64,000 nucleotides of DNA. It comes from a virus. Location of the stretch: the IMG/VR virus record IMGVR_UViG_3300035193_000030, positions 8,077 through 72,076 of that record; one strand, written 5' to 3'. Numbering within the stretch: the stretch's first letter is position 1; the number at the start of each line of letters is the position of its first letter. The position numbers were made by a program, and so were the translations under genes. The notes beneath the pieces are model-generated. The model saw only the letters and a program-made list of their open reading frames with translations. It was not told where the DNA came from and did no database searches. Below are positions 37,558 through 64,000 of the stretch, piece by piece.

Positions 37558-38610
37558 TCATTTTTTTAAGTTTGTATTACAAAGGGGGCATATATCGGGC
37601 ATTTCTGCATCAAATTTTTCTTTTAATTTATTATACCTCACAATATGAAATTCAAGTTCTGATATATTTTGTTCAATTAAACCTATTTTTTCTTTCAACG
37701 TATTAATTTCCTTTTCTATTTGTTTTTTTTCTTCAATTAATTGTAATATCTTATTTACTTCCTTTTCTGCATTTAATAGGTGTTCATAATTTTCAATTTC
37801 TTTCTTATTTTGTTCTATTGGTGTAATATAAAGTCCTATAGTATCTATAATTGAATCTAATTCATTTCTTTTTCCAATCAATAATAATATATAATCTATT
37901 TCATCAGACATCTTTGTTTTTTCTTGGTATTGTAAAAGCTTTTCATTAATTTTCTCAATTTGATTTGTAATTCCCATTAATTTAACTAATGCAATTTCAA
38001 TCTTGTTTTTTTCATTTTCCATCCCTTCTAAAACGTCCACATCAACTTCAAATTTTTCAAGATAATCATATTCTTTTAATTGCTCTTGTTTTATTTCCAA
38101 TTGTTCTTTTTTGTATCTCAATTCTCTATTAATGTCATTTCCCCAACTTTTCACATTTTTTATAGCTTTCCCTATATTATCAATCCTTGCTATTTTATTA
38201 AAATGAGAGGCGACCTCTCCCGGTGTATTGGAAATTAGAAAAGGTTTATCAAATTGTTGTTGTAAATTTATTTCATTCATATTCAGAAAATCATTAATCT
38301 CTTTCGGAACTTCTGTTTTTGTTGCTTCAAACAACATTTTCGTACCAATGTCCAATTCATACCCATTAAATTCCTTTCCTCTTTTTCTTGATACTTTCCC
38401 ATTATTAAAATTAATAGTTACATTGGAATCACCTCCCCAATCCGATCTAAAAGATACATGCAACCGATTATATAATAAAGAACGCAAAGATCGAATGATA
38501 GCGGATTTACCGCTATCAGACGTACCTTGTATAATATTTACCCCTTCAGTTAATTCTAACTTAGAGTATTTATGGCTTTGGAAATTTTTTATTTCAATGC
38601 TTTCTATCAT
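37558..38610 (-). CDS. SbcC/Rad50 N-terminal half ending in a zinc-hook CxxC
   Basis: IKNFQSH, GTSDSGKS Walker A, Q-loop, coiled coil, terminal CPLC. Confidence 0.85.
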   Translation of the reverse strand: MIESIEIKNFQSHKYSKLELTEGVNIIQGTSDSGKSAIIRSLRSLLYNRLHVSFRSDWGGDSNVTINFNNGKVSRKRGKEFNGYELDIGTKMLFEATKTEVPKEINDFLNMNEINLQQQFDKPFLISNTPGEVASHFNKIARIDNIGKAIKNVKSWGNDINRELRYKKEQLEIKQEQLKEYDYLEKFEVDVDVLEGMENEKNKIEIALVKLMGITNQIEKINEKLLQYQEKTKMSDEIDYILLLIGKRNELDSIIDTIGLYITPIEQNKKEIENYEHLLNAEKEVNKILQLIEEKKQIEKEINTLKEKIGLIEQNISELEFHIVRYNKLKEKFDAEMPDICPLCNTNLKK

Positions 38611-48345: not shown

Positions 48346-49845
48346 TTAAATATAAAAATTATTTTTTATTTTCTTCATATCCCCTTTATAAAAAATCAAT
48401 ATATTTTGATGTGATTTTCCAATTTTTCTTGATATTTTAAAAGTATTCCCTGTTCTTAAAAAAAGTGATCCAATAGGTGTTTGGTATACAATATCATTAT
48501 AAAAAACCATTCCATATCTTTTAAATATTTCTATCGTATCCCCTACGAAATTTCGCAATTCCCCCGTTTTTTTATCCCTAAAATTACTTACAACTACGCA
48601 AGCAAACCTATTTTCTTTTAATTTGTTAATAGCTTTTTGTAAAATCCGACCATACATAAATATAAAACGTTCATATGTCATATTACTAATATCTTCTTTT
48701 AAATCACTATATTTTTCCATATTACCATACGGGGGGCACGTAAAAATAAAATCTGATTCTGGTGCTTTTTTTAATGTTTTATAAGAGTCACCACATACCC
48801 AAATTAAAAATTGTATGCTTTTGTCTTTATTTACATGATCATTCCATTTTAAAATATCATATTTTTCATGATCAATTTCACAATATAAGTCATGGTCATA
48901 TATCCCATCTTTTATATACTTAATTATTTTATCTGTTTGCACATTTCCAAATAAAAATTGTAAACTTTGCTTGTGTGTTTCATAAATAGGCAATTTTCCT
49001 TCTTTAACTTTATAACACTTTAATAACCTATATCTATTTCGTACAATTAACGTATCATTGTTATTTATTGTAAATGGGCTAATTATACATCCAAATGGTT
49101 TATTGTTATTATCATGTAATGAACATAAGTTATCATTTCTCTTAAAAGGGCATTTATTATTTTCATTAGGTGTAAGTAAATTATCAACTATACCCCCCCC
49201 TAATTTAATTATTTTCTCTTGTTCAGTTAAATATATTGGAACGATTACCCCCTTATTTTTATCACTACTTTCACAACATTTTGCAAAACATATATTTTTT
49301 ATAAAATTCTCTGTACACGGATGAAACATTCGTTTTAGATAGGCAGGGCTTATTTTTATCTTTTTTTTGGCGGTGAGCCTGTTTTTAAATATTTCTTGTG
49401 CATTGTCATAATTAGCTTGAACTTGTTCCCCCCTTAACTCACCACCCCAATAACTATAACCCATACTTTTTGCAACTACCCCCCTTACTGAACCCCCAGC
49501 AAACGGGTCTAATATAACCCCATTGGCAATACAAAACCAAGAATACATTAATTCACACAGTACGGGGTCAAATACTGATGTACTATTATTAATCCAAACA
49601 TCAGACCCTCCTGTATACCCTTTATTTGTAATTCTTCCATCTGCATCTCTTCTTAATAAATTCCCTTTCCTTCCCCTTTCACTTTTTATACCTAAATTTA
49701 ACCATTGTCGTTTCCTGTCCAACCAAATTTTATCAAACCCACGTAATACAGAAAAAGGGGGGAATATAAATTTTCCTGATAACCCTATTTTTGTTAATTC
49801 TTTTACAGTAATGCCTAAGTTATTATTTAATTCTAATTTTTTCAT
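48346..49845 (-). CDS. N4/N6 DNA methyltransferase with an inserted YkgJ/CxxCxxCC-like Cys-cluster domain
   Basis: TSVFDPVLCE, DPFAGGSVRG (motif I), FTCPPY (motif IV), separated by C..C.AKCC...CPF....LCS.H....P..C...PF. Confidence 0.8.
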   Translation of the reverse strand: MKKLELNNNLGITVKELTKIGLSGKFIFPPFSVLRGFDKIWLDRKRQWLNLGIKSERGRKGNLLRRDADGRITNKGYTGGSDVWINNSTSVFDPVLCELMYSWFCIANGVILDPFAGGSVRGVVAKSMGYSYWGGELRGEQVQANYDNAQEIFKNRLTAKKKIKISPAYLKRMFHPCTENFIKNICFAKCCESSDKNKGVIVPIYLTEQEKIIKLGGGIVDNLLTPNENNKCPFKRNDNLCSLHDNNNKPFGCIISPFTINNNDTLIVRNRYRLLKCYKVKEGKLPIYETHKQSLQFLFGNVQTDKIIKYIKDGIYDHDLYCEIDHEKYDILKWNDHVNKDKSIQFLIWVCGDSYKTLKKAPESDFIFTCPPYGNMEKYSDLKEDISNMTYERFIFMYGRILQKAINKLKENRFACVVVSNFRDKKTGELRNFVGDTIEIFKRYGMVFYNDIVYQTPIGSLFLRTGNTFKISRKIGKSHQNILIFYKGDMKKIKNNFYI

Positions 49846-50640
49846 TTATTTTCCCCATAACATTATGTGTTCTCTCGATGTATAACGAACATTATGTTTA
49901 ATAGCCATTTCAACGGTCATTTGTTGGTTTGCAATTAATTCTTCTCGTGTAGAACCGCAAGGCATTAAAACAACCTGATCTTGTTTTATTAAACCATTTA
50001 TTATAAAATTTAACCCTATCTCATCCCAATCATCTTTACTTGTAATTACAAATTTGAACCATGAATTTTGTAAAGATGATAATTTTTTTAGGACAGATGT
50101 TATGTAACGTCTTTTTGTTAGATTTCCACTTGATGAAAGTTTTGGGGAATTATTCCATATATTAACGAAAGAAATCATCTGAGGCATAGGCATTATAGTA
50201 CATTCGTTTTCAATTTCTATAAATGGTTTAAAATGATATAATGCTTGGAATTTTTGGATAAATTTTATTATCATCTCTTGTTGTAATAATGGACTTCCTC
50301 CAGTAAATACCAAATGTTGCCCTTCCCGTAAATTTGAAATAACATCATATTCTTTCATTAATTCAAATAATTCATCTAATGTGTATGGATTTCCATAACG
50401 CCATACCTCTTTCGTATCACACCATACACAATTTAATGTACAAGATTGAAGTCTAAGGAAAGTACATGGATATCCTACAAAGTTTTCCCCTTGTATTGTA
50501 TTACAAAAAAATTCAGATACCTTTAAAAAATCTGTACTTCCAACATTCCTTTTAAAATTGGGATTCCCTTTAATTATTGTTGTCGGAAATTTCTGTGTCT
50601 GTAAATTGTTCATAACGTGCCATTGTTTTAGGTGTTTCAC
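49846..50640 (-). CDS. queE: 7-carboxy-7-deazaguanine synthase (radical SAM)
   Basis: E.F..TIQGE, FLRLQSCTLNCVWCDT, TGGSPLLQ, SPKL, FKFVI; start probably near 50613. Confidence 0.9.
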   Translation of the reverse strand: MKHLKQWHVMNNLQTQKFPTTIIKGNPNFKRNVGSTDFLKVSEFFCNTIQGENFVGYPCTFLRLQSCTLNCVWCDTKEVWRYGNPYTLDELFELMKEYDVISNLREGQHLVFTGGSPLLQQEMIIKFIQKFQALYHFKPFIEIENECTIMPMPQMISFVNIWNNSPKLSSSGNLTKRRYITSVLKKLSSLQNSWFKFVITSKDDWDEIGLNFIINGLIKQDQVVLMPCGSTREELIANQQMTVEMAIKHNVRYTSREHIMLWGK

Positions 50641-50956
50641 AAACTTCTATTGCATATAATAATGGGAATTGTTCTTTAAATATAGCATATAAATGCAATG
50701 CTATATTTTCAGCAGTGGGATTAAATGTACAAAAATCATTTAAGAATTTATGATCAAATGCTTTATCTAAATACTCTTTAATTGTATCTAGATCACGATA
50801 ATCCATTACAAATCCAATCTTGTCCAAAGCATTTGCCCGTAGTTCTACAATTACGACATAATTATGTCCATGATTTCTCACACAAGGATGATCTTGTGGT
50901 AAATTCAGCAAGCAATGCCCTGCTGAAAATGAAAATTCTTTTCTTATTATAAACAT
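50570..50956 (-). CDS. queD: 6-carboxytetrahydropterin synthase
   Basis: FSAGH, C..NHGHNY, DH..LN, PTAEN.A, ET. Confidence 0.93.
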   Translation of the reverse strand: MFIIRKEFSFSAGHCLLNLPQDHPCVRNHGHNYVVIVELRANALDKIGFVMDYRDLDTIKEYLDKAFDHKFLNDFCTFNPTAENIALHLYAIFKEQFPLLYAIEVCETPKTMARYEQFTDTEISDNNN

Positions 50957-51934: not shown

Positions 51935-53465
51935 AACTACCAATAAATGGGCGTCCACACCGAAGGTTTTGCAATACATGAATCTGATTCCGTATATTAA
52001 AATCCCCTTCTCGAATTACAATTTCATTTATTCTCATTATCCCAATTTCTTTTTCTCGCCCGTGTGCATCTTGATTTAATCCATACATTGCTGTAACGTG
52101 CCCGTATTTTCTTTTATCTTCACTAAAATTAGTCATTCTTAACGTATCCTTTGCATAACTTTCCGCATCAGCTTGTGTTGCAGTTAAGATTAGACAATGT
52201 TTTTCCTGACCTAATCCTCTCAATTGCTTCCATATATGGTTTTGTTTATGTCTTTCCTCTTTATAACTATTATCTTCTAATAAATCAGCATAATCTATTA
52301 TAATCACATCAGGAACAAAATTATCTTGTTTTTCCCAAATTCCTAAAATTGCTCTAATTTCATTGACACCTAAAGAACCATTAACGTGAGTAGAAAGACG
52401 AAAGGATCGTTTATTCTTAATAAAAAACTTTTCTATTGCTTCTTTTGCTTCATCTTCGGTTAAAGGCTCTTTTATTTTTATTTTCTTAATAAAAGGTGTT
52501 CCCCAAGGATTTTTATTAAATTCCTTGCAATTAAAACAATTCTTATAATCTTTATTATTTTTATAAACTTCTTTCAATTCTTTCATTGTAATCTTATAAC
52601 GGTAATTTTCATCCTTATTACGAAATAAACCGAAAGAACATTCACGTTCTTCCTTATCACAATTATCCAATTGATTATGTATACAATCTATTACAGGAAT
52701 ATAAAACTCCCCTGTATATTTTTCATTATCTGACTTTCCTTTCAATGAAATGCAAATTCTTTTTAATTGTTGGTGTTCAGTCATATCACCTGCCTGGAAA
52801 AAAGCGACCTTCCTTTTTTGTGTACATGCCTTCTTAGCACATTCAAGTAACCACCAGGTTTTTCCTCTTTTTTCAGGGGCTAAAAACGCTACAAATCCAT
52901 CCCTTACAAATTGATCATTCCAAAAACGTCCTAATTCTTTTGGGAATTGTATTAATACCTCAGTTGATTTATTAAATACCTGCCCTATCTTATTCATCAC
53001 ATTTTCTTTATCTTCAAAATTAATACAATTCCCCATTTCTTTTGATAATGGACGATACCCTGATGCCATATTTTCTGCTTCATAAAGTAAACCTTGTTCG
53101 GCTAACCCTTTTATTTTGTCAGAAAAACGAATTAAATTTCTTTCATTAAAGAATTGTAATGCTTTATCCGTATAATATTCTACATTAAAATCATCATTTA
53201 CATATTCTTCTGACAAGCCAGGTAATATATCTTCTTCTATTTCTTGTATTATTTCTTTTTGCAAGCCTTTACCTGCCTTTGCGTAAAGTATAGATTCAAT
53301 TTCTCTCCCAGGAGCTTTATTGTATTTATTAAAATAATCTAAACACCAACTAGCTAATCTTTTTGCAATACTACTTTCAAATAATGCAACATCCCATTTA
53401 CCTTTTATACGTTGATTAAATTCTGTGGAAACTATTAATCCAATTACTATCTTTCGTTCTATCAT
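51927..53465 (-). CDS. DnaB-like replicative helicase with Cys-rich insertion
   Basis: APEKRGKT, IIIDYADLL, TATQA, SEDKRK. Confidence 0.85.
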   Translation of the reverse strand: MIERKIVIGLIVSTEFNQRIKGKWDVALFESSIAKRLASWCLDYFNKYNKAPGREIESILYAKAGKGLQKEIIQEIEEDILPGLSEEYVNDDFNVEYYTDKALQFFNERNLIRFSDKIKGLAEQGLLYEAENMASGYRPLSKEMGNCINFEDKENVMNKIGQVFNKSTEVLIQFPKELGRFWNDQFVRDGFVAFLAPEKRGKTWWLLECAKKACTQKRKVAFFQAGDMTEHQQLKRICISLKGKSDNEKYTGEFYIPVIDCIHNQLDNCDKEERECSFGLFRNKDENYRYKITMKELKEVYKNNKDYKNCFNCKEFNKNPWGTPFIKKIKIKEPLTEDEAKEAIEKFFIKNKRSFRLSTHVNGSLGVNEIRAILGIWEKQDNFVPDVIIIDYADLLEDNSYKEERHKQNHIWKQLRGLGQEKHCLILTATQADAESYAKDTLRMTNFSEDKRKYGHVTAMYGLNQDAHGREKEIGIMRINEIVIREGDFNIRNQIHVLQNLRCGRPFIGSFW

Positions 53466-54262
53466 ATTGCTAATGGTAATTTATTTAATATCTTCATACT
53501 AACATGTGTATAAATTTCAGTTGTTTTGCTTGAGGAATGCCCTGCAAGTTTCTGAATTATTCTTAAATCCACTCCCTGATCAGTCAAATTTGTAAAACAT
53601 GAATGTCTAAGAAGATGAAAATGATATTCTTCTCCCAAATATCGTTTAACTATTTTATTACAACTTCCGGCAGAATATTTTAAACAATTTTGCCCATTAA
53701 ACAAATATTTCTTTGGTTTATATTGTTTGTAATATTTTCTTAATAATTCCAATAAAGTAGGGGTTAATGGGACTATTCTATCTTTGTTACCCTTCGCTTG
53801 TCTTACATTTATTATCATTCTTTTACTATCAACATCCGTAATTTTTAAATTTATTACCTCTGATACTCTTAATCCTACTGAATAAGATAATGATATTATG
53901 GCTTTATGTTTTAAATTTTTTATTTGTTTTATTGTATTTAATAAATAATCTTTATTAATAACCTGTGGCAAATGTTTTTCTTTCCTTGGGCGTTTAAAAT
54001 CAATTTTGTTATATTTTTTACCCAAAACTTTTTCCCACCCAAATTTTATGGCATTTATGATTTGATTTTGCTGTGAAATGGAAGAATAATCAAAATTTAA
54101 TAAATAATTTTGTATATCATTGGCGTTTAAATGTTGAGGATATTTATTAAATGACTGTAAAAATTTTTCAAAATAATGTCTATATATTTCAATTGTTCTT
54201 TCTGAATAATTGAAATATTTTAATTTTTGAATATAAATTTTTAAAAAATTAGTATGTAACAT
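53462..54262 (-). CDS. Integron-integrase-like tyrosine recombinase
   Basis: YSERTI..Y and QIINAIKF N-domain; YSVGLRVSE, KGNKDRIVP, HLLRHS, IQKLAGHSSSKTTEIYTHV; lacks the IntI-specific insertion. Confidence 0.9.
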   Translation of the reverse strand: MLHTNFLKIYIQKLKYFNYSERTIEIYRHYFEKFLQSFNKYPQHLNANDIQNYLLNFDYSSISQQNQIINAIKFGWEKVLGKKYNKIDFKRPRKEKHLPQVINKDYLLNTIKQIKNLKHKAIISLSYSVGLRVSEVINLKITDVDSKRMIINVRQAKGNKDRIVPLTPTLLELLRKYYKQYKPKKYLFNGQNCLKYSAGSCNKIVKRYLGEEYHFHLLRHSCFTNLTDQGVDLRIIQKLAGHSSSKTTEIYTHVSMKILNKLPLAI

Positions 54263-54289
54263 ATTTAGTACAAATTAATTAGCATTACA

Positions 54290-54317
54290 ATTTTATATAT
54301 AATAGTTCAAGTCAATT
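54290..54317 (+). other. attI-like insertion site
   Basis: tatatataata-G/TTCAAGTCAATT. The 13-mer is the exact reverse complement of 54658-54670, and no hairpin arm precedes it. Confidence 0.7.
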
Positions 54318-54630
54318 ACGCTTCGCTTAGAAATTGTTTAAGTGTGCAATCACATTTATTTGAACCAGCAATACTTCCATTAAAGTTATAATACGGAACT
54401 TGCCCAGTATCTCCACACTTAAAACATTTCACACTACGCTTGACGGTAGCTTCATTTAAAATTTTTATAGCTTTTTTTAAGTTACGAATATTCCTTCCAT
54501 TCTCAATTACATGTTTGTGCCCTATTTCTTTTACAATTCTCTTATCAGACTTAGCCCATTCTTTAGAATCAGAATATTCTTTTTCTAATTCTTTAATTTT
54601 TTGTTCTAATAATTCTATTACATATTTCAT
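54316..54630 (-). CDS. Cassette 1 cargo, hypothetical protein with Cys motif
   Basis: CFKCGDTG...CDC. Confidence 0.65.
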   Translation of the reverse strand: MKYVIELLEQKIKELEKEYSDSKEWAKSDKRIVKEIGHKHVIENGRNIRNLKKAIKILNEATVKRSVKCFKCGDTGQVPYYNFNGSIAGSNKCDCTLKQFLSEA

Positions 54631-54663
54631 AATTAAAATTTTAAATTCTCACTACCTAATTGA

Positions 54664-54815
54664 CTTGAACGGGCGCGGTGTGTCCGCTCTTATCATTCTT
54701 TTCCCGAGCGAAGCGAACGTGCCTCGAACAAGGTGTAAACTGAATTTAATACTTTTCTCTTGCTCGTTCCTCACAAGCGGTATTAAACTACAGTTTCACA
54801 CCGCGCCCGTTACCA
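54664..54815 (+). repeat. attC-like site 1
   Basis: AAC-GGGCGCGGTGTG (54668-54682) ... CACACCGCGCCC-GTT (54797-54811), perfect 15-bp inverted repeat. Confidence 0.85.
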
Positions 54816-54829
54816 ACAATAAAAAATTA

Positions 54830-55207
54830 TTATCGGTGTAAGTAAACATTAGTTCTTTCGGTGTCGCCGTCTCGCTCGAACCATCCAAAATAAACCTTTT
54901 TCTTCCTGCCTAGTACGTGTGGTGCTATCCAATCAATAAATGTATTTAATTCTTCGCTCTCGTAGTTAATATCGGTATGTATGGCAAGTTCCCATCCATT
55001 TTTTACCTCTTTTACATAAGGTTTATCATACCCACCATACCCCATTGTTGCAAACATCTGGTACCATCTTTGTGTGTCAAAAAATGGATTCTTCTCGTAT
55101 GGGGCATCGTGGTTATTTTCAATACATTTATTTAGCCACTCTATCAAACTTTCGGGAGTATTCCTACCAAGGTTTATTTTTAACTTTATCTCAGTTATGT
55201 AGCTCAT
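54830..55207 (-). CDS. Cassette 2 cargo, hypothetical protein
   Basis: Body bounded by GTTACCAAC (54809) and GTTGGTAAC (55219-55227). Confidence 0.75.
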   Translation of the reverse strand: MSYITEIKLKINLGRNTPESLIEWLNKCIENNHDAPYEKNPFFDTQRWYQMFATMGYGGYDKPYVKEVKNGWELAIHTDINYESEELNTFIDWIAPHVLGRKKKVYFGWFERDGDTERTNVYLHR

Positions 55208-55220
55208 AATTTTTAAAAGT

Positions 55221-55348
55221 TGGTAACAATGTACATAGGTAATTTGCCGTGTTTCATTGTTACAGTTGTTTGTAATTCAAATTTATCTCTTTGTTGTTAC
55301 TTAATGCGTCAAGCAGGGGCAAACATACCCATGTACTCAACGTTATGG
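55221..55348 (+). repeat. attC-like site 2
   Basis: AAC-aatGTACATAGGTAATTTGCC ... GGCAAACATACCCATGTAC-tcaac-GTT. Confidence 0.85.
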
Positions 55349-55603
55349 CAAATGCGAGAGCATTATTTTACAAAGTTCATCTGCATCTAATCCATAAACG
55401 CTTATTAGTTCACTACTGTAGTATTCGTTTTTATTATATATCTGGTAAAACTTATCTTTCTCATAGTTATAGTCAATATTATCTAATGTAGGCGAAGCAC
55501 TTACCATAACACTAAATAAATTCCATAACTCAGTTTGTGCCTGTTCGGGGGTCAGTTCTCCGTTTGCAACTTTTGTAAGTAATTCTAACTGTTGTTCTTT
55601 CAT
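55343..55603 (-). CDS. Cassette 3 cargo; starts in the attC loop and stops in the GTTA core
   Basis: Body GTTATGGCAAATG (55342) / CACTTACCATAAC (55498-55510); ORF crosses the AAC junction. Confidence 0.7.
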   Translation of the reverse strand: MKEQQLELLTKVANGELTPEQAQTELWNLFSVMVSASPTLDNIDYNYEKDKFYQIYNKNEYYSSELISVYGLDADELCKIMLSHLP

Positions 55604-55634
55604 ATCGTTACGGTATTTATTATTTTCGTTGTAA
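55504..55634 (+). repeat. attC-like site 3
   Basis: AAC-actAAATAAATTCCATAAC ... GTTACGGTATTTATT-attttc-GTT. Confidence 0.7.
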
Positions 55635-55645
55635 TTAAAACGAAA

Positions 55646-55986
55646 CTACAACACATTATATAAATAATGCGCTGTAGCTCGTATCAACTTTATTCCTCTC
55701 CCACGCACCATTCTAAAGTTTCAATCTTATAACCATATAAAGCCAAATGCCTTGTTACCATATCAGCATACGGTGGCAACATAGGTACTTTACCGCTTTC
55801 AATATCTTTCCATTGGTCATCCCAAGTCTTTTTTTCAGCCTTTAGTTCGGCAATTTTGTCTTTAACTTCTTGTTCGCTTTTCATTTTATTAAGTAATGCC
55901 CACGCTCGCAAACGTGGAGGTTTATATCTCGTATGTAATGTAGTGCGTATGCGAGGGCGCACTATTCATATAATTATTAGTTAGCA
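55646..55986 (+). repeat. attC-like site 4 with an approximately 280-bp ORF-containing loop
   Basis: AAC-acATTATATAAATAATGCGC ... GCGCACTATTCATATAAT-tatta-GTT. Confidence 0.75.
55690..55962 (-). CDS. Hypothetical protein within the attC loop (start probably MKSEQEV)
   Basis: MKSEQEVKDKIAELK...IETLEWCVGEE. Confidence 0.6.
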   Translation of the reverse strand: MRPRIRTTLHTRYKPPRLRAWALLNKMKSEQEVKDKIAELKAEKKTWDDQWKDIESGKVPMLPPYADMVTRHLALYGYKIETLEWCVGEE

Positions 55987-55993
55987 ACAAACA

Positions 55994-56446
55994 CTACCAA
56001 TTCATTCTATCAGCTGTATTGCGGAAAATATCGCAAAGCTGTTCGGATATTTTAAATCGCTCCTTATTAATTTCTATTGATTTTCGAATGTCGCCATCTG
56101 CGTGCCTTTCTGTTGCGGCTTTCCAATCAAACAACATCTCCACCAAATCAAACAAATCAAATCCATTCACACCATTTTCATAATGCTCTGGGTGATGACT
56201 ATTATTTGCATAGTGGTGGTCAAGTGCTACTTTCAAGCCCTTTAAAAACTCTTTGTATTCTTCACTTCCATAAGTACATCCTTTAAGTTTGGGTGTGTAC
56301 TCATCAAACAATTCCTTTTCAGGGCTTTCAAGTTTGGAACTGTCGTGCTTTCCCGCCCTAATTAATAACTCGCTTACTGCTGTAATTAAAAGTTCATTAA
56401 CTCTTTTTATGTGCTGTAGAGTATCAGCTTTGCTATCGTACTGCAT
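55994..56446 (-). CDS. Cassette cargo, HD-like DUF5662-family protein
   Basis: HI..V, HDSSK, HHY..NSHHPEHY, EML.DW.AA..RH; body GTTAGCAAC (55980) / GTTGCTAAC (56480-56488). Confidence 0.75.
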   Translation of the reverse strand: MQYDSKADTLQHIKRVNELLITAVSELLIRAGKHDSSKLESPEKELFDEYTPKLKGCTYGSEEYKEFLKGLKVALDHHYANNSHHPEHYENGVNGFDLFDLVEMLFDWKAATERHADGDIRKSIEINKERFKISEQLCDIFRNTADRMNW

Positions 56447-56746
56447 ATAATTAAATTTTGTAATTAATAATCCGTGTCAGTTGCTAACAAGTTACATATT
56501 GCAAAAGCCATGAAACATTGTAGCACTTAATCGGTCGATTGCAGTTGGCTTTCGACAACATGTAACCGTCCCGTTATTCGCAATTCCCCCTTCCCTGCAA
56601 TCCATCTAGGAATTGCGAATAATGAACCGCGAATATATCCCTCCCACAACCGAAACTTACCTTTCCAACTCAAAGAACGCGCGTCTGGAACAGACGAATA
56701 ACTATGAATATAGATAAGTTTCATTGGCTATGAATTGGGATAAAAA

Positions 56747-56929
56747 TTATTCCATATCACGCTCAATAATCGGGCTATTATTAATCAAGTCGCTAATAAT
56801 TTCAGCGTGAAACTTTTCATCATTATCCTGCATGGCGTAAAGCCCTCGCTCTAAAACCTTGTGAAATGCTACTACCACATCTGACGATTCATATTCCTTT
56901 GATGTCTCTAAATAAGCTGTAAATTCCAT
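56747..56929 (-). CDS. Cassette cargo, hypothetical protein
   Basis: AT-rich leader and protein-like composition. Confidence 0.55.
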   Translation of the reverse strand: MEFTAYLETSKEYESSDVVVAFHKVLERGLYAMQDNDEKFHAEIISDLINNSPIIERDME

Positions 56930-57000
56930 AATTTTTATTTTAGTTTAATAATTAAAGTCGTATATCATAACCAATTAAACCTTCCCATATTCGCGGTTCA

Positions 57001-57264
57001 TTAGAATGCATTAAAGCGGTTGTTAATTATGTTGTCGTAATCTTCATCTCGCTTTGCCTCCCCGCCTATTTTATCATAAATCCATTTTTCATCTATGCCC
57101 TTAAATATCAAACACGGAGCACCTTCTTTATCTGGGTATCTGTGATGTCTGCTTTTTTTAACAGATGTAACTAAATCTATATTTATAGGGTTATTTTCAT
57201 ATCCCTCAAAATAACTCCCAACGCTCGTATTACATTTTATAAATGTTGCCATAAAATAACGCAC
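57001..57264 (-). CDS. Cassette cargo, hypothetical protein (start probably MATFIK)
   Basis: PINIDLV motif; stop lies in the degenerate ATTAG core. Confidence 0.65.
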   Translation of the reverse strand: MRYFMATFIKCNTSVGSYFEGYENNPINIDLVTSVKKSRHHRYPDKEGAPCLIFKGIDEKWIYDKIGGEAKRDEDYDNIINNRFNAF

Positions 57265-57390
57265 CCTAACAATAAATATAAAACAGTGGGTGTTAGGGTG
57301 TCTAATTAGCCCGATCTGCTTAAGTTACATTAATTCAATTTTCAAAGTTAGTGGGTAAAATCCCACCGTTTCATATTCGGAACGTTGTGC
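57264..57390 (+). repeat. attC-like site
   Basis: CCCTAAC-aataAATATAAAACAGTGGG ... CCCACCGTTTCATATT-cggaac-GTTGTGC. Confidence 0.85.
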
Positions 57391-57391
57391 T

Positions 57392-57658
57392 TCATTTGCC
57401 AACCCGCTCGAATAAATCACAAGTCAATCCATCACCGAAGCACTCGTCTTTATCACTATTTGCATCATTTCCACATCTACCAAAATCAGATGGTTCAAGT
57501 TCATCTTCGTACTCATCTTGGTAGCTTGTAAACCACTTACACCATTGGCAGGTTTTCTTCCATTCTGTTTCTTCTCTTATGTTTGTTTCCATCTTTTTTA
57601 GTTTGCATTGCTCACCCGCATTGGTTTTTTCAAAACCATTAAGATAAATACTTTTCAT
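57392..57658 (-). CDS. Small Cys-rich protein (start probably METNIREE)
   Basis: CQWCKWF...GRC...TCDLFE. Confidence 0.6.
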   Translation of the reverse strand: MKSIYLNGFEKTNAGEQCKLKKMETNIREETEWKKTCQWCKWFTSYQDEYEDELEPSDFGRCGNDANSDKDECFGDGLTCDLFERVGK

Positions 57659-58625
57659 ATCTCATTTCAGCTTTATTCCTATCCCAAACACTATCCCATA
57701 AAGGATTCCAGTTTACATAATCATATATTTCATATATTTCATCAAAATCATTTGGGAAGTCTTTATAATCACAAATTATATTTGTTGCTATTTTTACACC
57801 GATAGCTTTTAAATGCTGTGCCATACTTATAGTATAAAAAGTTGCTTCAACATTCCTATGCATGTCTCTTAAAACATCTGCATTATTACTTTGTATCGGG
57901 CAATGGAATATTTCTAACACATTGCATTTTGCAGCGTTAAGTAATTCACCTTTGCACTGTATGGCAACCTGTGGCTCAATATTTCTTATAGATATTTTCT
58001 TATTTTTTTCGATTGCTAAATTACACCAATCTTTTATTTGCTGTACTGTCGGACTATCTGCAATTAAAACAACATCGTTAAACTTCATGAACTCATTTAC
58101 AAGCCTATTGTCAATATCATATTTCTCGTGCTTTCCTCTGGTCATTTTTATAGTACAATAAGTGCAATTGAATGGACATCCTTTCCCTATTCGTAATGGA
58201 TATTTATTCCTGAAAATATTCCCTTGTTCAAGTTCCTTGTCAGTTTCCTTGAAGTCTTTTATCCAAAATGGTTTTGCAAATTCAACAAGTTTTTTATTGT
58301 TAATTTGTTGATACGTACATCGCATTTGTTCCAATCTTCCAATATCTTCAGGAAATGCTATATCGTTTCGTTGTGCCAAACAGCCAGATATAAACACATT
58401 TTTATTTGGATATTTGTCTCTAAACTTTTCAGCAGTATTGAAGTCGTTCAATATTGCAAGGTCAGTAACTTGGCATGATAAAACAATTATATTCTCAGCT
58501 TCTTTTTCATCGGTTGTAACTAATTCTATATTTGCATTAGCCCAACTTAAAGCATCAGCCCATACACTCATACAGGCAGTGCAAATAAAATAATGTTTCC
58601 CGTTTAAATTTTTAATATTTTCCAT
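57639..58625 (-). CDS. MiaB/MtaB-like radical SAM methylthiotransferase lacking TRAM
   Basis: N-domain Cys triad (TAC, LSCQV, SGCLA), GCPFNCTYC...TRG, HCPIQS....L..M.R, TNII; start taken at MENIK. Confidence 0.75.
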   Translation of the reverse strand: MENIKNLNGKHYFICTACMSVWADALSWANANIELVTTDEKEAENIIVLSCQVTDLAILNDFNTAEKFRDKYPNKNVFISGCLAQRNDIAFPEDIGRLEQMRCTYQQINNKKLVEFAKPFWIKDFKETDKELEQGNIFRNKYPLRIGKGCPFNCTYCTIKMTRGKHEKYDIDNRLVNEFMKFNDVVLIADSPTVQQIKDWCNLAIEKNKKISIRNIEPQVAIQCKGELLNAAKCNVLEIFHCPIQSNNADVLRDMHRNVEATFYTISMAQHLKAIGVKIATNIICDYKDFPNDFDEIYEIYDYVNWNPLWDSVWDRNKAEMRYEKYLS

Positions 58626-58705
58626 CCCTATTTTTTCTTTTTTTACGTTAGTACTTCGATTCATCGTTTCTGCGTATTTGTCAGCACATTTCATACCTCC
58701 GTCCG

Positions 58706-58873
58706 TTAGGCAACATAAAAATGCCACCTACCCTCATCGTCTTCTTGGTATCCCATTGCCATGAATATACATTGGTAATTATTTCTACCATTATACTGGT
58801 TCATTAAATCCAGCGCACCCCTCATTATATTAACTTTCTTTGTTGCTGGAAGTGTTTCAAACTTATTTATCAT
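58706..58873 (-). CDS. 55-aa cassette cargo (not in the ORF track)
   Basis: MINKFETLPATKKVNIMRGALDLMNQYNGR...WHFYVA; stop within GTTAGGC at 58705. Confidence 0.55.
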   Translation of the reverse strand: MINKFETLPATKKVNIMRGALDLMNQYNGRNNYQCIFMAMGYQEDDEGRWHFYVA

Positions 58874-58959
58874 CTTTCATTTTGTTGTAATTTTAAAATT
58901 TATATCTCGTATTTAAAACGACAACGAGAGTTTACCGTCAAACGTTAGCAACAATAAGG

Positions 58960-59196
58960 TCAATCCTTAATCTTGCTGTGTTCATTCCAATATTCTTCGA
59001 AGTATTCTTTGCTGCATAGTACACCCCAACTCATTCCACAAGGAGTTGTGTATATATCCATACAACTTGCCAATTTTTTAGCAACCCATTCTTGTACTTC
59101 TTCTCTATCTCTTGGTTTTTTCCTTTTCCCAAACCATTCATGTTCGTGAATTAAAATTGTCAAGTTGTAAAGTGTATTTATTTGTTCTTGCGTCAT
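58960..59196 (-). CDS. Cassette cargo, hypothetical protein
   Basis: Body GTTAGCAAC (58944) / GTTGCTAAA (59208-59216). Confidence 0.7.
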   Translation of the reverse strand: MTQEQINTLYNLTILIHEHEWFGKRKKPRDREEVQEWVAKKLASCMDIYTTPCGMSWGVLCSKEYFEEYWNEHSKIKD

Positions 59197-59209
59197 AATA
59201 AATTACTGT

Positions 59210-59303
59210 TGCTAAAAAGGTATATACGTAATACCCTATTAAGGTTTGTACTAATTTTTAAAGTTTCTGCATTGGGTACTACGTATATACCCAATCGTAG
59301 ATC
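59210..59303 (+). repeat. attC-like site with both cores mutated
   Basis: AAA-aaGGTATATACGTAATACCC ... GGGTACTACGTATATACC-caatc-GT(-)AGATCG. Confidence 0.75.
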
Positions 59304-59548
59304 GAATTAAGTTCTAAATAATGCAATGGAACTTCTCGAAAGTCTGTTCCTTCTACACCATTCCAAATTGCTTTCTGTTCTATTAATGCTCTTGGTTCTT
59401 TATATATTTTGCCAGTTTTGCCACACTCAAATATCGGATAGTAAGCAATTTTCCATTTTCCTTTGCCATCCATTTTGTATGTGTTTCCAATTTTGTGAGC
59501 TTTCCATAAAGGATGCTCTAATGATTTTTGTAATTCCATGTTTATCAA
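59279..59548 (-). CDS. Cassette cargo, hypothetical protein
   Basis: Body GTAGATCGAATTAA (59297) / TTAACTCGCTCTAAC (59549-59563). Confidence 0.65.
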   Translation of the reverse strand: MINMELQKSLEHPLWKAHKIGNTYKMDGKGKWKIAYYPIFECGKTGKIYKEPRALIEQKAIWNGVEGTDFREVPLHYLELNSIYDWVYT

Positions 59549-59967
59549 TTAACTCGCTCTAACACAAATTAGGCACAATAAATTACTGCACTTTCGGTTC
59601 TATTTTAACCCTACCGTCTGTTAATGCTTCAAATAAATTGTTAAGTTCTTCACATAGCCTAGTTACGTGAGCCGAACAAAGCATATAGGCAATATTTTGG
59701 GATAAGCTTTCTCTTAATACCATAAAAATTATTGCTTTATCAGCAGGTATATTATACACCATACCAATGTACAGAACCATCCTACGGCATAACTAAACCT
59801 TGATGGTTGTTCATTACTAAATATTGCAAGTAGAATACTTAAAATAGCGCATGCTATTACGATGTAACACGTTATTTCCATAATTTTTATTGCTTTAAAT
59901 GTTAATAATTAAATTTATATTTCAATTTTACTTTGTATTCCCAAATCCTCCCCATATTCTCTGGTTC

Positions 59968-60191
59968 GTTATAAAAACAATTAAAGCGGAATCCCTAATT
60001 TTTGTTCTTATTGTGGTCTTGTAGCAGATAAGGTACTCACTTGCGTTTTCTTGAATCTGCCCTCACACGCTAAATTTAGACTGAATGGGCTTTATCTATG
60101 GTTTTACGTCCAGTTCCGTCAACCAACCTAGTAGGCGTTCATTACGCGCGCTTGCCTACGCACCATTGTTTCCGCTTTAAAAGTTTATAAC
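59968..60191. ncRNA. ORF-less cassette with GC-rich multi-hairpin sequence (candidate structured RNA)
   Basis: Bounded by GTTATAAAAACAATTAAAGCGGAA / TTCCGCTTTAAAAGTTTATAAC; internal GCAGAT/ATCTGC and GTAGGC/GCCTAC stems. Confidence 0.4.
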
Positions 60192-60427
60192 ACAATACTA
60201 CGTATCGGGTAAAAATCAACTTTATCCGTTTGCGAAGAATAAAATTAACTATATTTTTCTAAGCATGTTTTTTAATTGTTCAACTGCCATATAATACGTT
60301 ACCCCATAAAACGCACCATCTTTTTCATAGTTTTCAAGCGCTCTTAAAGCCGTTTCCATTGCTTCTTTAATTTTTTTATTCATATCCATAATTTTTCAAA
60401 TTCCGTAAAATTACATTCCCAGGTCCG

Positions 60428-60589
60428 TTACTCCTTTTTTGTTTCTACATTTAAAATTTCTATTTTATACCTTGCATACTGCTCCATTAATGTGCATCCT
60501 ATATTAAGTAAGTTCTTCGATCGTAATTTAGCTCTAATTCCAAATTTATCACTTGGACTAACATTAATCAAATATTCTTTAGCATTCAT
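60428..60589 (-). CDS. 53-aa cassette cargo (not in the ORF track)
   Basis: MNAKEYL...LMEQYA...; stop within gtccGTTA. Confidence 0.5.
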   Translation of the reverse strand: MNAKEYLINVSPSDKFGIRAKLRSKNLLNIGCTLMEQYARYKIEILNVETKKE

Positions 60590-60607
60590 ATCTTTTAATT
60601 TGATAAG

Positions 60608-61216
60608 TTATTCCCATTTAATATTTTTCTCCCAATCATAAGCTTTTGCCATTGCTTCTATGTCTTGCCTCATTTCTTTCTCTCCCAATTCAGTTAGCTT
60701 TGCATGCCATCTTTTTATCATTTCAGCATCTATATAATCAGTCGGCAACATTTCGCTAACATGCGGTAATAATTCATGTGCTTGTGGTAATCTCGAAGGT
60801 TCCACCAAGGCACTTTTAGCATAATAATAAGCCTTTACTACTTCTCTATCAAACGCAGTTTCTTTAGTGCTACAGTTATTAATTCTATGACTGAGTCGTA
60901 AAGCGTTTTCTATTGTTTTAAACTTCCATTTTGGTATTGTTATCATTTCTTCTGCCATTGAACAATATTTTTTTATCACATCTTGAACCACCTGTTCAAT
61001 ACCTTCTATTTCTAATAATTTAATTTGGCCTCCACCAACAAATTCAGCATTATACATTTCAGCATGTCCATCATCATATCCTCTTTGATAGACTTCTTTG
61101 ATTAAATTAACCAAAATACTGTTCATAATATCAGATATATGTAATTTTTTATCTGTGTTATTAAGTTCTTTATTCTTATTATTTTTATTCATATATTTTG
61201 AATTTTTGTGTTTCAA
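60608..61216 (-). CDS. Mosaic hypothetical protein reading through degenerate attC remnants
   Basis: KLHISDIMNS and LLPHVSEMLP are translations of AAC-junction sequences (TTCGCTAAC at 60752-60760). Confidence 0.55.
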   Translation of the reverse strand: MKHKNSKYMNKNNKNKELNNTDKKLHISDIMNSILVNLIKEVYQRGYDDGHAEMYNAEFVGGGQIKLLEIEGIEQVVQDVIKKYCSMAEEMITIPKWKFKTIENALRLSHRINNCSTKETAFDREVVKAYYYAKSALVEPSRLPQAHELLPHVSEMLPTDYIDAEMIKRWHAKLTELGEKEMRQDIEAMAKAYDWEKNIKWE

Positions 61217-62049: not shown

Positions 62050-62856
62050 TCAAGTAGATTGTTTCACATAATCAGGAATATTATTATAAATTTCTTGTTC
62101 GTTATTAATATCATCTTTAAACATATGCAATTTCATTTCTTTGGGATCATCCAGCCAACGATATTGATTTAACCATGTGGAAGCAAGTGGAATAAACTTT
62201 GAGACAGACCAACGTTCTGTTTTCTTTTGTAATATAATTGCTTTAACCACCTGCCTCCAAGTAGGACAATATTTCTTTTTTGATGGAGAATTACATAAAT
62301 TAATCCAAGCTTTTAAAGCACTCCCTTCTTTATCTTTTCGTGGGTATAATTTCCAAAAGTTTTTAAAGTCATTTTCGACAATATTGTATTTTAATACTTT
62401 GTTATTATTTACTTTGTTATTATTTATATTATATGCCCTACCAAAATCCGTAGGACTAGACCTACCAAAATCCGTAGGACTAGACCTACCAAAATCCGTA
62501 GGTCTAGTGTTTATGCGGGTTAGCAAATGTTCAACATGGATAAAATAATGCTCTTTTGCTGGTGTACCAACCATTTTAGTGGAAATTATATTTTCATTGA
62601 TTAATTGTTTTTTGCACTTACGTAATTTGTGTAAAGATAGCCCAATTTGTTTTGTTTGGTTCTTATGGAGAATATAAAACCAACCTTCTTTTAATCGGTT
62701 GTGTTCTTTAAAATAAAAATATTTGTCTATTAAATTTGATAAAAAAAGGGCAGCTTCCACTCCAAAATAATTAATTAATGTTTTATTGACAATCAGATAG
62801 TTTGTTGTATTAAGTGATTGTAATAATAAATCTTCTTTAATAATATAGTTTTTCAT
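62050..62856 (-). CDS. Replication initiator (lambda O/DnaD-like organisation)
   Basis: N-terminal wHTH, iteron-coded linker, FKNFWKLYPRK...A..AW and PLASTWLNQ.RW.D. Confidence 0.8.
   Translation of the reverse strand: MKNYIIKEDLLLQSLNTTNYLIVNKTLINYFGVEAALFLSNLIDKYFYFKEHNRLKEGWFYILHKNQTKQIGLSLHKLRKCKKQLINENIISTKMVGTPAKEHYFIHVEHLLTRINTRPTDFGRSSPTDFGRSSPTDFGRAYNINNNKVNNNKVLKYNIVENDFKNFWKLYPRKDKEGSALKAWINLCNSPSKKKYCPTWRQVVKAIILQKKTERWSVSKFIPLASTWLNQYRWLDDPKEMKLHMFKDDINNEQEIYNNIPDYVKQST
62437..62508. repeat. Three 24-bp iterons (putative origin)
   Basis: cctaccaaaatccgtagg-actaga twice, plus a third copy ending tctagt; each quasi-palindromic, beside an AT-rich tract. Confidence 0.75.
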
Positions 62857-62865
62857 AGAATTTAA

Positions 62866-63129
62866 TTACCAATCCCATTCAGATTCTTGCACTTTAAATC
62901 CATTTTCTTTTAATAATTGTATTGCTTTCGGGGCACAATTTTCACATAAATCAAGTTCGTATTTATCTCCACTTCCACCTTCTGGATATGCTGTTCCTGT
63001 TTTGTATTCTAACTCAAAATTAAAAGCGTCATACTGCTTATTTTTTATTATTATACCACATTTATCACATAACTTGTAACATTTCGTTACAACTTCTGTC
63101 ATTTGCATTTTTGTTTTTCTTATTTCCAT
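62866..63129 (-). CDS. Small Zn-finger protein
   Basis: CDKCG...DLCENC. Confidence 0.7.
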   Translation of the reverse strand: MEIRKTKMQMTEVVTKCYKLCDKCGIIIKNKQYDAFNFELEYKTGTAYPEGGSGDKYELDLCENCAPKAIQLLKENGFKVQESEWDW

Positions 63130-63272
63130 AATATCTAAGTTAATTAAAAAATAAAAACCCGAATGGGGAAGGTGCTGCTTCTATTCCATTCGGGTGAAAA
63201 TATATAAAATTTAGCAATTGGAATTAAATATTTTACGCAGCACCGCATTTTAGACATTTTTAAAAACCATTG

Positions 63273-63304
63273 TAAAAGTACAAATAAATTTAAACTTAAA
63301 CAAA
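63273..63304 (-). promoter_or_regulatory. Bacteroidota-type promoter facing the initiator and cassette array
   Basis: TTTG-N20-TACTTTTA. Confidence 0.5.
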
Positions 63305-63331
63305 TTGAATATTTAATTCATTTAAAATTAA

Positions 63332-63748
63332 TTATTTAAACACCCTTTCAAATACATCTCTTTCCAGAGGGTGAATAAAACATAATAGTTCTTCATTCGT
63401 TTTTGTTGATAAATAATTATTTGAAAGGTATTTATTATAACTCCTAGCATATTGAAAGGCTAACTTGCGGTACTTACAGTAAGGAAAATCCCATTCAAAT
63501 TCGGTTCTGAATTGAGGTGTTCTAGGAAGGTAAATAATTACTTCATTTCGTAAACGATAACATCCTTCATGTGTCCCATTCAAATGTAATGAAATGGCTA
63601 CGGCAAGGACGAAACTTCCATGTGTTTTCTGCCCCCAATCAAATTGGATATCTGCCCCATATAGTTTCTGAGCAATAGATGGAGTTAATTCAACCCCATC
63701 TAATATTATTTCTTTTGTTTTAATATTACCTACTATGACATGTTCCAT
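63332..63748 (-). CDS. DUF6166-like hypothetical protein
   Basis: LDGVELTP...FDWG....GS..LAVAI; start taken at MEHVIV. Confidence 0.55.
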   Translation of the reverse strand: MEHVIVGNIKTKEIILDGVELTPSIAQKLYGADIQFDWGQKTHGSFVLAVAISLHLNGTHEGCYRLRNEVIIYLPRTPQFRTEFEWDFPYCKYRKLAFQYARSYNKYLSNNYLSTKTNEELLCFIHPLERDVFERVFK

Positions 63749-63783: not shown

Positions 63784-64000
63784 TTAAGTAGACCAAGACC
63801 AAGACCCAGACCTAGACCAAGACCTAGACCAAGACCAAGACCTAGACCAAGACCTAAACCCAGACCCAGACCAAGACCAAGACCCAGACCTAGACCCAGA
63901 CCTAGACCAAGACCAAGACCCAGACCTAGACCAAGACCTAGACCAAGACCAAGACCTAGACCAAGACCAAGACCTAGACCTAGACCCAGACTTAGTCCCT
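63784..64000 (-). CDS. 3' end of a Ser-X (SR/SW/SG) dipeptide repeat protein
   Basis: Hexamer array TCT-(A/T/G)GG in one frame, ending TCT ACT TAA. Confidence 0.65.
   Translation of the reverse strand, partial: GTKSGSRSRSWSWSRSWSWSRSWSRSGSWSWSRSGSRSGSWSWSGSGFRSWSRSWSWSRSWSRSGSWSWST

Follow-up and report, generated by a model that had tools for sequence, protein, structure and literature searches.

Why should the long hairpins between the small genes of a phage pair better on one DNA strand than on the other? The question is raised by a stretch of 64,000 nucleotides (the window), which comprises bases 8077-72076 of the 72,076-nt IMG/VR contig IMGVR_UViG_3300035193_000030, a tailed-phage genome with a 127-nt terminal overlap and 31.6% G+C. 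On the - strand of the window, an array of small open reading frames (ORFs) sits upstream of a tyrosine recombinase gene of the same strand, and its gaps hold long imperfect hairpins. An initial annotation had read these hairpins as sites similar to the attC sites of integrons, with mismatches that favour folding of the - strand. Here, we find the observation confirmed in part, the strand bias itself being real, and the interpretation supported in part: the array most likely forms an integron-like system of cassettes under a Xer-like recombinase, in which the - strand of the window is the one folded and recombined. The strand-biased hairpins hold across a whole family and not in the window alone.

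Strand-biased hairpins upstream of a recombinase gene

The argument draws on the following elements, given with their window coordinates.

53462-54262, - strand: gene of a tyrosine recombinase of 266 aa, Xer/XerA-like and without the IntI-specific insertion
54288-54315, - strand: conserved recombinase-proximal site, a candidate attI-like primary site, which reads TTGACTTGAAC and then TATTATATATAAAATTG
54316-59780, - strand: array of about 13 small co-directional ORFs (46-351 aa, gaps of 11-199 nt), read as cassettes
54666-54813, - strand: S1, GC-rich, with a perfect 15-bp outer stem (AACGGGCGCGGTGTG) that includes AAC and GTT, without spacers or wobble (inverted-repeat scans)
55222-55348, - strand: S2, with ATAAC, a 5-nt spacer, the stem, a 3-nt spacer and GTTACC; two G:T pairs on the - strand
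55633-55689, - strand: S3, a 25-bp stem with five G:T pairs on the - strand, then a T-rich tail; terminator-like, without the AAC...GTT frame
56482-56579, - strand: S5, a significant family member, with AATAAC, a GGGAC spacer, a stem with two G:T pairs, TT and GTTAGCAAC
56574-56622, no strand assigned: S5b, a perfect 14-bp hairpin with a 21-nt loop directly after S5; z of -4.3 to -6.3 on both strands, no clear strand preference
57268-57386, - strand: S7, with ACAAC, a 6-nt spacer, a 16-bp stem with two G:T pairs, a 4-nt spacer and GTTAGG
59210-59302, - strand: S9, the best family member

The initial annotation had listed five hairpins in which the right arm carries C where perfect pairing would need T, that is, an A:C mismatch on the + strand and a G:T wobble on the - strand. 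Three of them are real hairpins with the mismatches as described: S2 (its site 2), in which TACCCATGTAC at 55327-55337 stands opposite GTACATAGGTA at 55232-55242, S7 (its site at 57362; arms 57277-57292 and 57362-57377) and S9 (its site at 59274; arms 59219-59236 and 59274-59291). The two others are doubtful as hairpins. Site 3 sets GTTACGG at 55607 against CCATAAC at 55523, with arms (55607-55621 and 55515-55529) that are 87% complementary and a left arm inside the ORF 55343-55603, while in site 4 about 280 nt with a complete ORF separate the arms (55660-55674 and 55957-55971), whose match is, by a rough estimate, near chance level. Two hairpins outside this list show the same bias, namely S3 (55633-55689), with five such mismatches, and the stem at 56491-56566 in S5, with two. 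Indeed, in a strand-neutral alignment that treats both types of transition alike, the core stems of the window contain 12 transitions that favour the - strand and none that favours the + strand; the sole transition of the latter kind falls in a doubtful outer extension of the hairpin at 56567-56629.

Folding of both strands gave the expected direction. Using RNA parameters, the - strand was more stable at eight of the nine window sites; with DNA parameters this held for seven, one site being equal and one less stable, and the gaps between the strands were much smaller. S1 folds well on both strands (z of about -5 to -6 against shuffles), with an RNA energy of -61.5 on the - strand and -51.8 on the + strand. 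The long stem of S2 is both the minimum free energy (MFE) and the centroid structure as RNA on the - strand only (z -3.59 versus -1.60), and as DNA it is not the MFE structure. S3 shows RNA energies of -27.0 versus -12.8 kcal/mol (z -7.12), S5 prefers the - strand in RNA (-29.7 versus -21.5) and in DNA (-14.8 versus -10.5), and the long stem of S7 is the MFE structure on the - strand only. The full AAC/GTT frame is present in S2, S5 and S7, whereas S1 lacks the spacers and the flanks of S9 are decayed.

Three broader scans were set aside. A local-window MFE scan of both strands was swamped by long multibranch folds and was uninformative; a lenient genome-wide scan for inverted repeats found the real genome no richer than its shuffles (13 versus 5-11 at a score of at least 36), the enrichment appearing in a scan of gaps only; and a constrained AAC...GTT folding scan, together with a stem-extension scan, separated the sites neither from the antisense strand nor from shuffles (716 versus 652 sites). 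Two motifs were rejected as well: TTAGCAAC, which gave 10 matches against 2.09 expected, five of them in 55981-59215 and on both strands, is part of some 3' flanks only and no general feature of the hairpins, and TATATCTCGTAT, with two matches, was not significant.

A hairpin family shared by related phages

Is the strand bias a common feature of such arrays? A search with the recombinase retrieved 28 IMG/VR loci (given L numbers here), about 19 of them at 51-70% identity. Most of these loci have small co-directional ORFs, spaced 50-330 nt apart, ahead of the recombinase gene. The genes are different, but short repeated elements recur in the gaps, both inside one array and from array to array. 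Between the array of the window and those of the related loci we found no DNA similarity except in the hairpins.

We examined 159 gaps upstream of related recombinases, leaving out the locus L014 and one gap with non-ACGT letters. Inverted repeats that score at least 36 occur in 42 of these gaps, against 1 of 159 in shuffles, and those that score at least 30 in 69, against 8. The transitions in their stems favour the sense over the antisense strand by 143:68 at the stricter and by 229:98 at the more lenient threshold, where 30 shuffles gave a null ratio of 1.24 (p = 2e-4 and 6e-8, respectively).

From the 69 gaps with a repeat of at least 30, 41 have AAC and GTT near the arms (28 dropped), and 29 of these pass a strand-neutral pairing filter (12 dropped). 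The 29 sites follow a common plan on the recombinase strand: (Y)TAAC, G, a spacer of 4-6 nt, a stem, a variable loop, the returning stem, a spacer of 0-3 nt and GTTA(K). Their first 14 stem pairs comprise 353 Watson-Crick pairs, 36 sense wobbles, 6 antisense wobbles and 11 other mismatches; the sense wobbles have the G in the 5' arm in 33 of 36 cases and recur at stem positions 7/8 and 12/13. The spacer asymmetry that the initial annotation had noticed in the window is likewise a property of the family, as on the - strand the spacer after AAC is the longer one in 25 of the 29 sites, equal in three and shorter in one.

For a consensus fold, 16 sites were picked by hand from the 41 AAC...GTT-flanked ones plus S5 and S9 of the window. 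In the RNAalifold consensus, a one-sided internal loop separates an outer helix of 5 bp from an inner helix of 20 bp, with compensatory changes in 16 of the 25 predicted pairs. Paired cells amount to 94.7%, whereas shuffles reach 73.1% and alignments with a slid partner 33-55%, and four alignment columns are mainly G:U (14, 10, 7 and 12 of 16 sites). The family alignment and the consensus fold thus bear out the attC-like anatomy of the sites. The base after AAC is G in 14 of the 16 sites (alignment A2), and with this G and the longer spacer after AAC the - strand corresponds to the folded bottom strand of attC, as had been proposed. The consensus contains no consistent single-base bulges of the extrahelical kind; the recurrent G:T pairs at positions 7/8 and 12/13 might, judging from their fixed places in the alignment, take the role of extrahelical bases in strand choice.

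A covariance model built from the 16 sites (R1) gave 98 matches in 43 loci (631 kb), ten of which are the weaker reverse strand of a stronger match, leaving 88 sites. Of these, 86 lie on the strand of the recombinase gene, and 82 of the 86 lie upstream of it. With a second model built without window sequences (R2), S9 scores 63.6 bits (E 5.9e-10) on the - strand versus 26.4 bits on the + strand, and S5 scores 29.0 bits (E 0.0045) on the - strand only. Four copies of S9, 80-85% identical, occur in three other phages (two in L006, one each in L008 and L019); they differ by two compensatory pair changes, and at the wobble position some have G:T and others A-T. S3 (13.8-15.2 bits) and S7 (15 bits) are not significant with either model. 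Several other hairpins of the window keep the frame of the family and not its sequence.

In one related phage contig (L028:9950-10165), an internal deletion has left of the recombinase gene only some 27 codons at its start and roughly 20 at its end. It still carries family hairpins upstream of this remnant, plus two about 8 kb downstream.

A compact recombinase and its proximal site

Which enzyme could act on these sites? The recombinase matches the Pfam families Phage_integrase (121.6 bits) and Phage_int_SAM_4; its best NCBIfam model is XerA_Arch, at 181.7 bits below the cut-off of 220, and its best solved relative is Pyrococcus XerA (4a8e, E 2.7e-33). The model of integron integrases, TIGR02249, reaches 139.9 bits against a cut-off of 265 and is split into two stretches. 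Aligned with VchIntIA (2a3v), the HxxR, H and Y motifs correspond, and query residues 177-215 face residues 180-266 of the chain, so that about 48 residues are missing. By its sequence, the enzyme is a compact Xer-like recombinase and not an IntI, which goes against the initial annotation where it had invoked IntI.

The AAC of the proximal site lies 43 nt upstream of the recombinase ATG, and related blocks follow AAC in the window and in L002, L010 and L003, more loosely in L018, despite different upstream cassettes. A conserved site does therefore exist where the initial annotation had placed attI. Its service as an attI-like site in the window is suggested by its position, which is that of the integrase-proximal site of the Freya phages described below. 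Held against a dif-type 11-6-11 layout, the Freya proximal site reads as dif-like, the recombinase match being below its cut-off.

Cassette junctions at AAC in Freya phages

Rearrangements of a comparable array can be followed in the Freya phages of Polaribacter, ten isolates of which carry an integrase related to that of the window and have genomes of 43,978-48,920 nt. Here, cassettes are seen to be excised and inserted as units, which was observed in these relatives only. We compared seven genomes, Freya_1, 2, 5, 6, 8 and 9 with Freya_10, whose matching blocks are 98.2-100% identical. Directly upstream of its integrase Freya_10 has twelve small genes, some or all of which the other six genomes lack, and Freya_6 contains a different insert.

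On the integrase-sense strand, each of the six junctions lies immediately behind ...YAAC. In four of them, the site at the end of a cassette is joined to the one located 55 nt upstream of the integrase; another connects two internal sites, and the insert of Freya_6 has ACCAAC at both borders. With the right end of this insert, five of the six junctions end at the integrase-proximal site. Partner sites have little more than AAC in common (about 3-5 nt), and the sequence past the junction is always that of the right-hand partner. Because the partners are alike over so few nucleotides, homologous recombination does not fit, while site-specific exchange of a single strand at AAC does. The bases that follow the crossovers (AAC-G, N5-8, GTATRR) resemble, in our own reading, the 5' half of the hairpins of the window family.

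Pairs of phages with identical recombinases showed no informative cassette differences. A joint of 55531 to 60758 among the contigs of one sequencing run had only 27 letters on one side and 90% likeness; joints of this type are unreliable, and nothing was drawn from it.

Related sites in Bacteroidota chromosomes

Relatives of the recombinase number 244 in bacterial genomes, and nearly all of the 80 listed belong to Bacteroidota. Scanning 62 bacterial loci with R1 revealed 28 sites, of which ten (two loci) have the arrangement of the phages and eighteen (13 loci) lie downstream of the recombinase gene and on the opposite strand. At the four loci that were examined (L129, L173, L142 and L138), every site comes after an ORF, and the ORFs on either side share the strand of the recombinase gene. 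The sites are therefore opposite to the ORF strand there, and the strand favoured for folding is antisense to the genes.

These bacterial sites have the same AAC-G spacer, GTATATGA stem and G:T pattern. Their recombinase (290-379 aa) is encoded directly upstream of an array of larger genes, among them genes for dynamin-like, NTPase, Schlafen/AlbA_2 and MORN-repeat proteins and for three tandem 413-aa paralogues. From gene content and site sequence, the bacterial arrays look like a chromosomal integron-like system without the IntI insertion.

Proposed mechanism

On balance, we hold it probable that the cassette array is integron-like and that its hairpins serve the adjacent Xer/XerA-like tyrosine recombinase as attC-like recombination sites. 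The - strand, when single-stranded, would fold each site into three parts, namely a short outer helix in which (T)AAC(G) would pair with (T)GTTA, an asymmetric internal loop with 4-6 nt on one side and 0-3 nt on the other, and an inner helix of about 20 bp, capped by a variable loop, that would tolerate G:T pairs and prefer them at two positions. The recombinase would cleave this strand at AAC, the cut strand would be exchanged with another hairpin or with the conserved site upstream of the recombinase gene, and the resulting junction would be resolved by replication. Small accessory genes would in this way be excised, inserted or reshuffled, with the cassette genes presumably transcribed together with the recombinase and replication genes. 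The mechanism builds on observed features (hairpin anatomy, covariation, strand bias, single orientation and clustering by the recombinase, the AAC junctions of Freya and the antisense bacterial sites), from which we infer the action of this phage's recombinase on the sites, the exact position of cleavage, the exchange of single strands and the source of single-stranded DNA.

Several findings weigh against this proposal. Only two of about nine window hairpins, S5 and S9, are significant family members, and in the window copy of S9 the flanks have changed from AAC to TAC and from GTT to TTT. With DNA parameters the gaps between the strands at the nine sites are small (0.5-4.3 kcal/mol), as G:T adds far more stability in RNA, and the long stems of S2 and S7 are, as DNA, not significantly better than shuffles (z -1.2). 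Moreover, the raw energy asymmetry is largely compositional: in 143 co-directional gaps of at most 260 nt upstream of related recombinases (duplicate locus L014 excluded), the sense strand is more stable by 3.56 kcal/mol with RNA parameters, of which 2.52 persist in shuffled gaps (Wilcoxon p = 0.007). Better folding of the coding strand is also seen across the genome, in 20 of the 27 gaps that separate - strand genes and in all 4 that separate + strand genes. The strand bias is thus partly a matter of composition, but the mismatch bias exceeds it. In the phage arrays the folded strand is also the mRNA strand, and the recombinase lacks the insertion that marks integrons in the strict sense. The Freya integrase is only 34.7% identical to that of the window, R1 matches no Freya sites (L029 and L032 included), only some of which have compact hairpins, and as these sites look like short double-stranded core sites, recombination may not require hairpins. 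Finally, no rearrangement was seen in this phage itself, either against its best relatives (70% identity in IMG/VR and 74% amino-acid identity among metagenome contigs) or among the contigs of the only run that contains it, which is probably its source.

Could the hairpins act otherwise?

The strongest alternative, although we consider it unlikely, is that the hairpins act only as RNA on the polycistronic - transcript, as RNase III-type sites, 3' stabilisers, weak terminators or translational insulators, next to an unrelated recombinase such as a lysogeny or dimer-resolution enzyme. Intergenic stem-loops between small phage genes are known on the transcript strand, as in the RNase III sites of phage T7 and the promoter-stem-loop cassettes of T4. 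The hairpins of the window resemble these in their placement between small genes on the transcript strand, and stems of about 20 bp with an internal loop are reminiscent of the T7 sites. G:U pairs on the mRNA strand are a classic signature of RNA structure, RNA parameters give far larger energy gaps and z-scores than DNA parameters do, gaps throughout the genome favour folding of the coding strand, and S3 resembles an intrinsic terminator. The T7 and T4 elements, however, are not known to have an AAC/GTT frame or a link to a recombinase, whereas the family described here is tied to the recombinase gene in one orientation (82 of 86 sites upstream), and its AAC-G and GTTA flanks match those at the Freya crossovers. 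In an intrinsic-terminator test (GC-rich stem plus T-run), only S3 among about nine array hairpins was flagged on the - strand. What an exclusive RNA function does not cover are the bacterial sites of the same family, antisense to the ORFs in four of the four arrays checked. The Freya junctions and these antisense sites favour DNA recombination over RNA folding, which weakens the caveat, voiced in the initial annotation, that mRNA is made in the sense of the - strand; the hairpins may have an RNA role as well.

Less credible, and improbable in our view, is a set of ordinary double-stranded core sites with a left arm ending in AA|C, a centre of 5-9 bp and a right arm of the GTATRA type, where the palindrome would represent two sites head to head and the G/A difference between the arms would reflect sequence demands and not folding. 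The Freya proximal site, as we read it, does consist of two inverted arms of about 11 bp around 6-7 bp, the Freya cassette sites have the form AAC-G, N5-8, GTATRR without long stems, and in the window family 5' arms with GTATGA stand against 3' arms with the complement of GTATAA. Yet stems of at least 20 bp with compensatory changes in 16 of 25 pairs are not explained by a protein-binding arm of about 11 bp, and the unrelated central regions of the Freya partners fit the exchange of one strand only.

Very improbable is the view that the hairpins are selfish palindromic repeats, similar to miniature inverted-repeat transposable elements or repetitive extragenic palindromes, or intergenic modules that promote homologous shuffling between phages without a dedicated recombinase. 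Copies at 80-96% identity do recur within and between arrays beside unrelated genes; against this stand the strict single orientation beside the recombinase, the lack of any transposase in the window array by protein family search, and Freya partners that share too little sequence for homologous exchange.

That the bias arises from base composition or chance can be practically discounted. Shuffled gaps do retain about 70% of the RNA energy asymmetry and shuffled inverted repeats still give a ratio of 1.24, but the observed ratios are 2.1-2.3 (p = 2e-4 to 6e-8 versus the shuffle null) and the wobbles occupy fixed positions in the stem.

Comparison with known systems

How close, then, is the proposed cassette system to integrons? 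As in integrons, a tyrosine recombinase of the Xer/IntI branch lies beside a cassette array, and the sites are imperfect palindromes with AAC...GTT boxes, an unpaired asymmetric spacer and a variable loop, as expected of attC. A G follows AAC, one strand is favoured for folding, and in the Freya relatives the crossover occurs at AAC beside the integrase. The systems differ in the direction of the genes, since the cassette ORFs of the window are on the folded - strand, co-directional with and pointing towards the recombinase gene, while canonical ones are on the top strand and point away from attI. They differ also in their sites, which here show no clear extrahelical bases and conserved G:T pairs at fixed stem positions, in their host, here a phage, and in the recombinase, here without the IntI-specific insertion. 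Owing to this absence and to the reversed orientation of the cassette genes, we do not class the phage system as a member of the integrons.

Another precedent is XerC, which integrates the folded single-stranded DNA of the CTX phage, as a whole genome, at the chromosomal dif site. This integration relies, as the system proposed here would, on a Xer-type recombinase that has no IntI insertion, on a single strand that folds to imitate a duplex site, and on the exchange of one strand; the difference is that a whole phage genome enters dif, in place of cassettes in arrays.

The IntI-specific insertion is called essential for integron function in Smyshlyaev 2021. According to Bouvier 2009, the strand choice of attC is set by the unpaired central spacer, the extrahelical bases and the variable terminal structure, and the base after AAC is G in most R' boxes of attC; the word 'wobble' does not occur in the accessible text of that paper. 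Clusters of attC-like sites have been predicted in virulent phages, including Polaribacter phage P12002L, whose cluster comes with two methyltransferase genes and one of whose sites was recombined by IntI1 (Qi et al. 2023, PMC9892861). R1 matches one site in P12002L (38032-38093), between a DNA modification gene and a methylase, which may be one of the sites of that study. In its accessible text, the same study differs from ours in reporting no phage-encoded cognate recombinase and in treating the clusters as integron components carried by phages. The dif modules of Acinetobacter plasmids (PMC7399989) are likewise gene modules bounded by Xer-type sites, and differ, so far as the accessible text goes, in that their sites are double-stranded, 28 bp long and served by host XerC/D, with no hairpins and no adjacent dedicated recombinase. 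The Freya integrase and range of genome sizes are noted in Bartlau et al. 2021, the text of which contains neither 'hairpin' nor 'variable region'. In a literature search we found no description that links these recombinases to cassette arrays.

Implications

Our current picture of integron recombination stems mostly from Proteobacteria. If the proposed cassette system is real, the capture of cassettes through a folded strand would have arisen, or would persist, outside IntI with an insertion-less Xer-like enzyme, and phages would gain a dedicated means of shuffling accessory genes, which would explain the size spread of 44.0-48.9 kb among near-identical Freya isolates. A recombinase and a site of about 95 nt with two G:T pairs would then form a simple natural pair for studying strand choice, and the cultured Polaribacter/Freya system makes the proposal directly testable. 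More tentatively, it could well be that Bacteroidota phages and chromosomes carry a second integron-like lineage of gene capture, with a compact Xer/XerA-like recombinase without the IntI insertion and with folded single-stranded sites that mark the active strand by an asymmetric loop and fixed G:T pairs in place of extrahelical bases. In phages it would serve to exchange small accessory genes, possibly for counter-defence, and in bacteria to store larger defence-like genes.

Other features of the window

Beyond the array and the recombinase, the window contains the following.

about 3.4-34 kb, + strand: structural genes
on the - strand: replication genes (family A polymerase, clamp, clamp loader, DnaB-like helicase, QueD/QueE-like genes, methyltransferase)
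59967-60195, no strand assigned: inverted repeat some 230 nt long that encloses a GC-richer core, in a gap without a convincing ORF (inverted-repeat scans, no Rfam match)

Only three ORFs of the array have family matches (DUF5662 at 55994-56446, radical SAM/UPF0004 at 57639-58727 and phrog_4334 at 54830-55207). The elements at 54666-54813 and 59967-60195 have a G+C content far above the genome value, and neither matches Rfam. Indeed, the search of the window with Rfam 15 yielded no match at the gathering score and only two chance-level matches (E 0.82) outside the hairpins. Also within the array, a perfect 13-nt GC-rich inverted repeat (GAACCGCGAATAT and its complement, at 56626-56640 and 56988-57000) brackets a 60-aa ORF (56747-56929), in which it resembles Freya sites whose box partner lies across an ORF. 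A match between window 61126-61209 and L006:5150-5232 (88% DNA identity) was rejected as a hairpin, being the N-terminal 23 or so codons common to two otherwise different ORFs.

Classic intrinsic terminators, short GC stems followed by T-runs, are found on the - strand in other regions of small genes (46-892, 1675-1927 and 63118-63343) and are of a different class from the array hairpins. A stretch that resembles a tRNA and has the T-arm motif GGTTCGATTCC occurs at about 1190-1290 on the - strand, inside a 386-nt gap; ARAGORN called no tRNA anywhere in the window. QueE-like and QueD-like genes adjoin the gene of a DNA methyltransferase with a ParB-like N-terminus (49846-50956 and 48346-49845), which suggests DNA modification of the 7-deazaguanine type. 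Tandem GGTCTAGGTCT-type repeats lie near the window end (63803-63944), and a duplicated GTAGGTCTAGTCCTAC palindrome (62450-62508) lies within a replication-initiator-like gene (62050-62856); both may be origin iterons.

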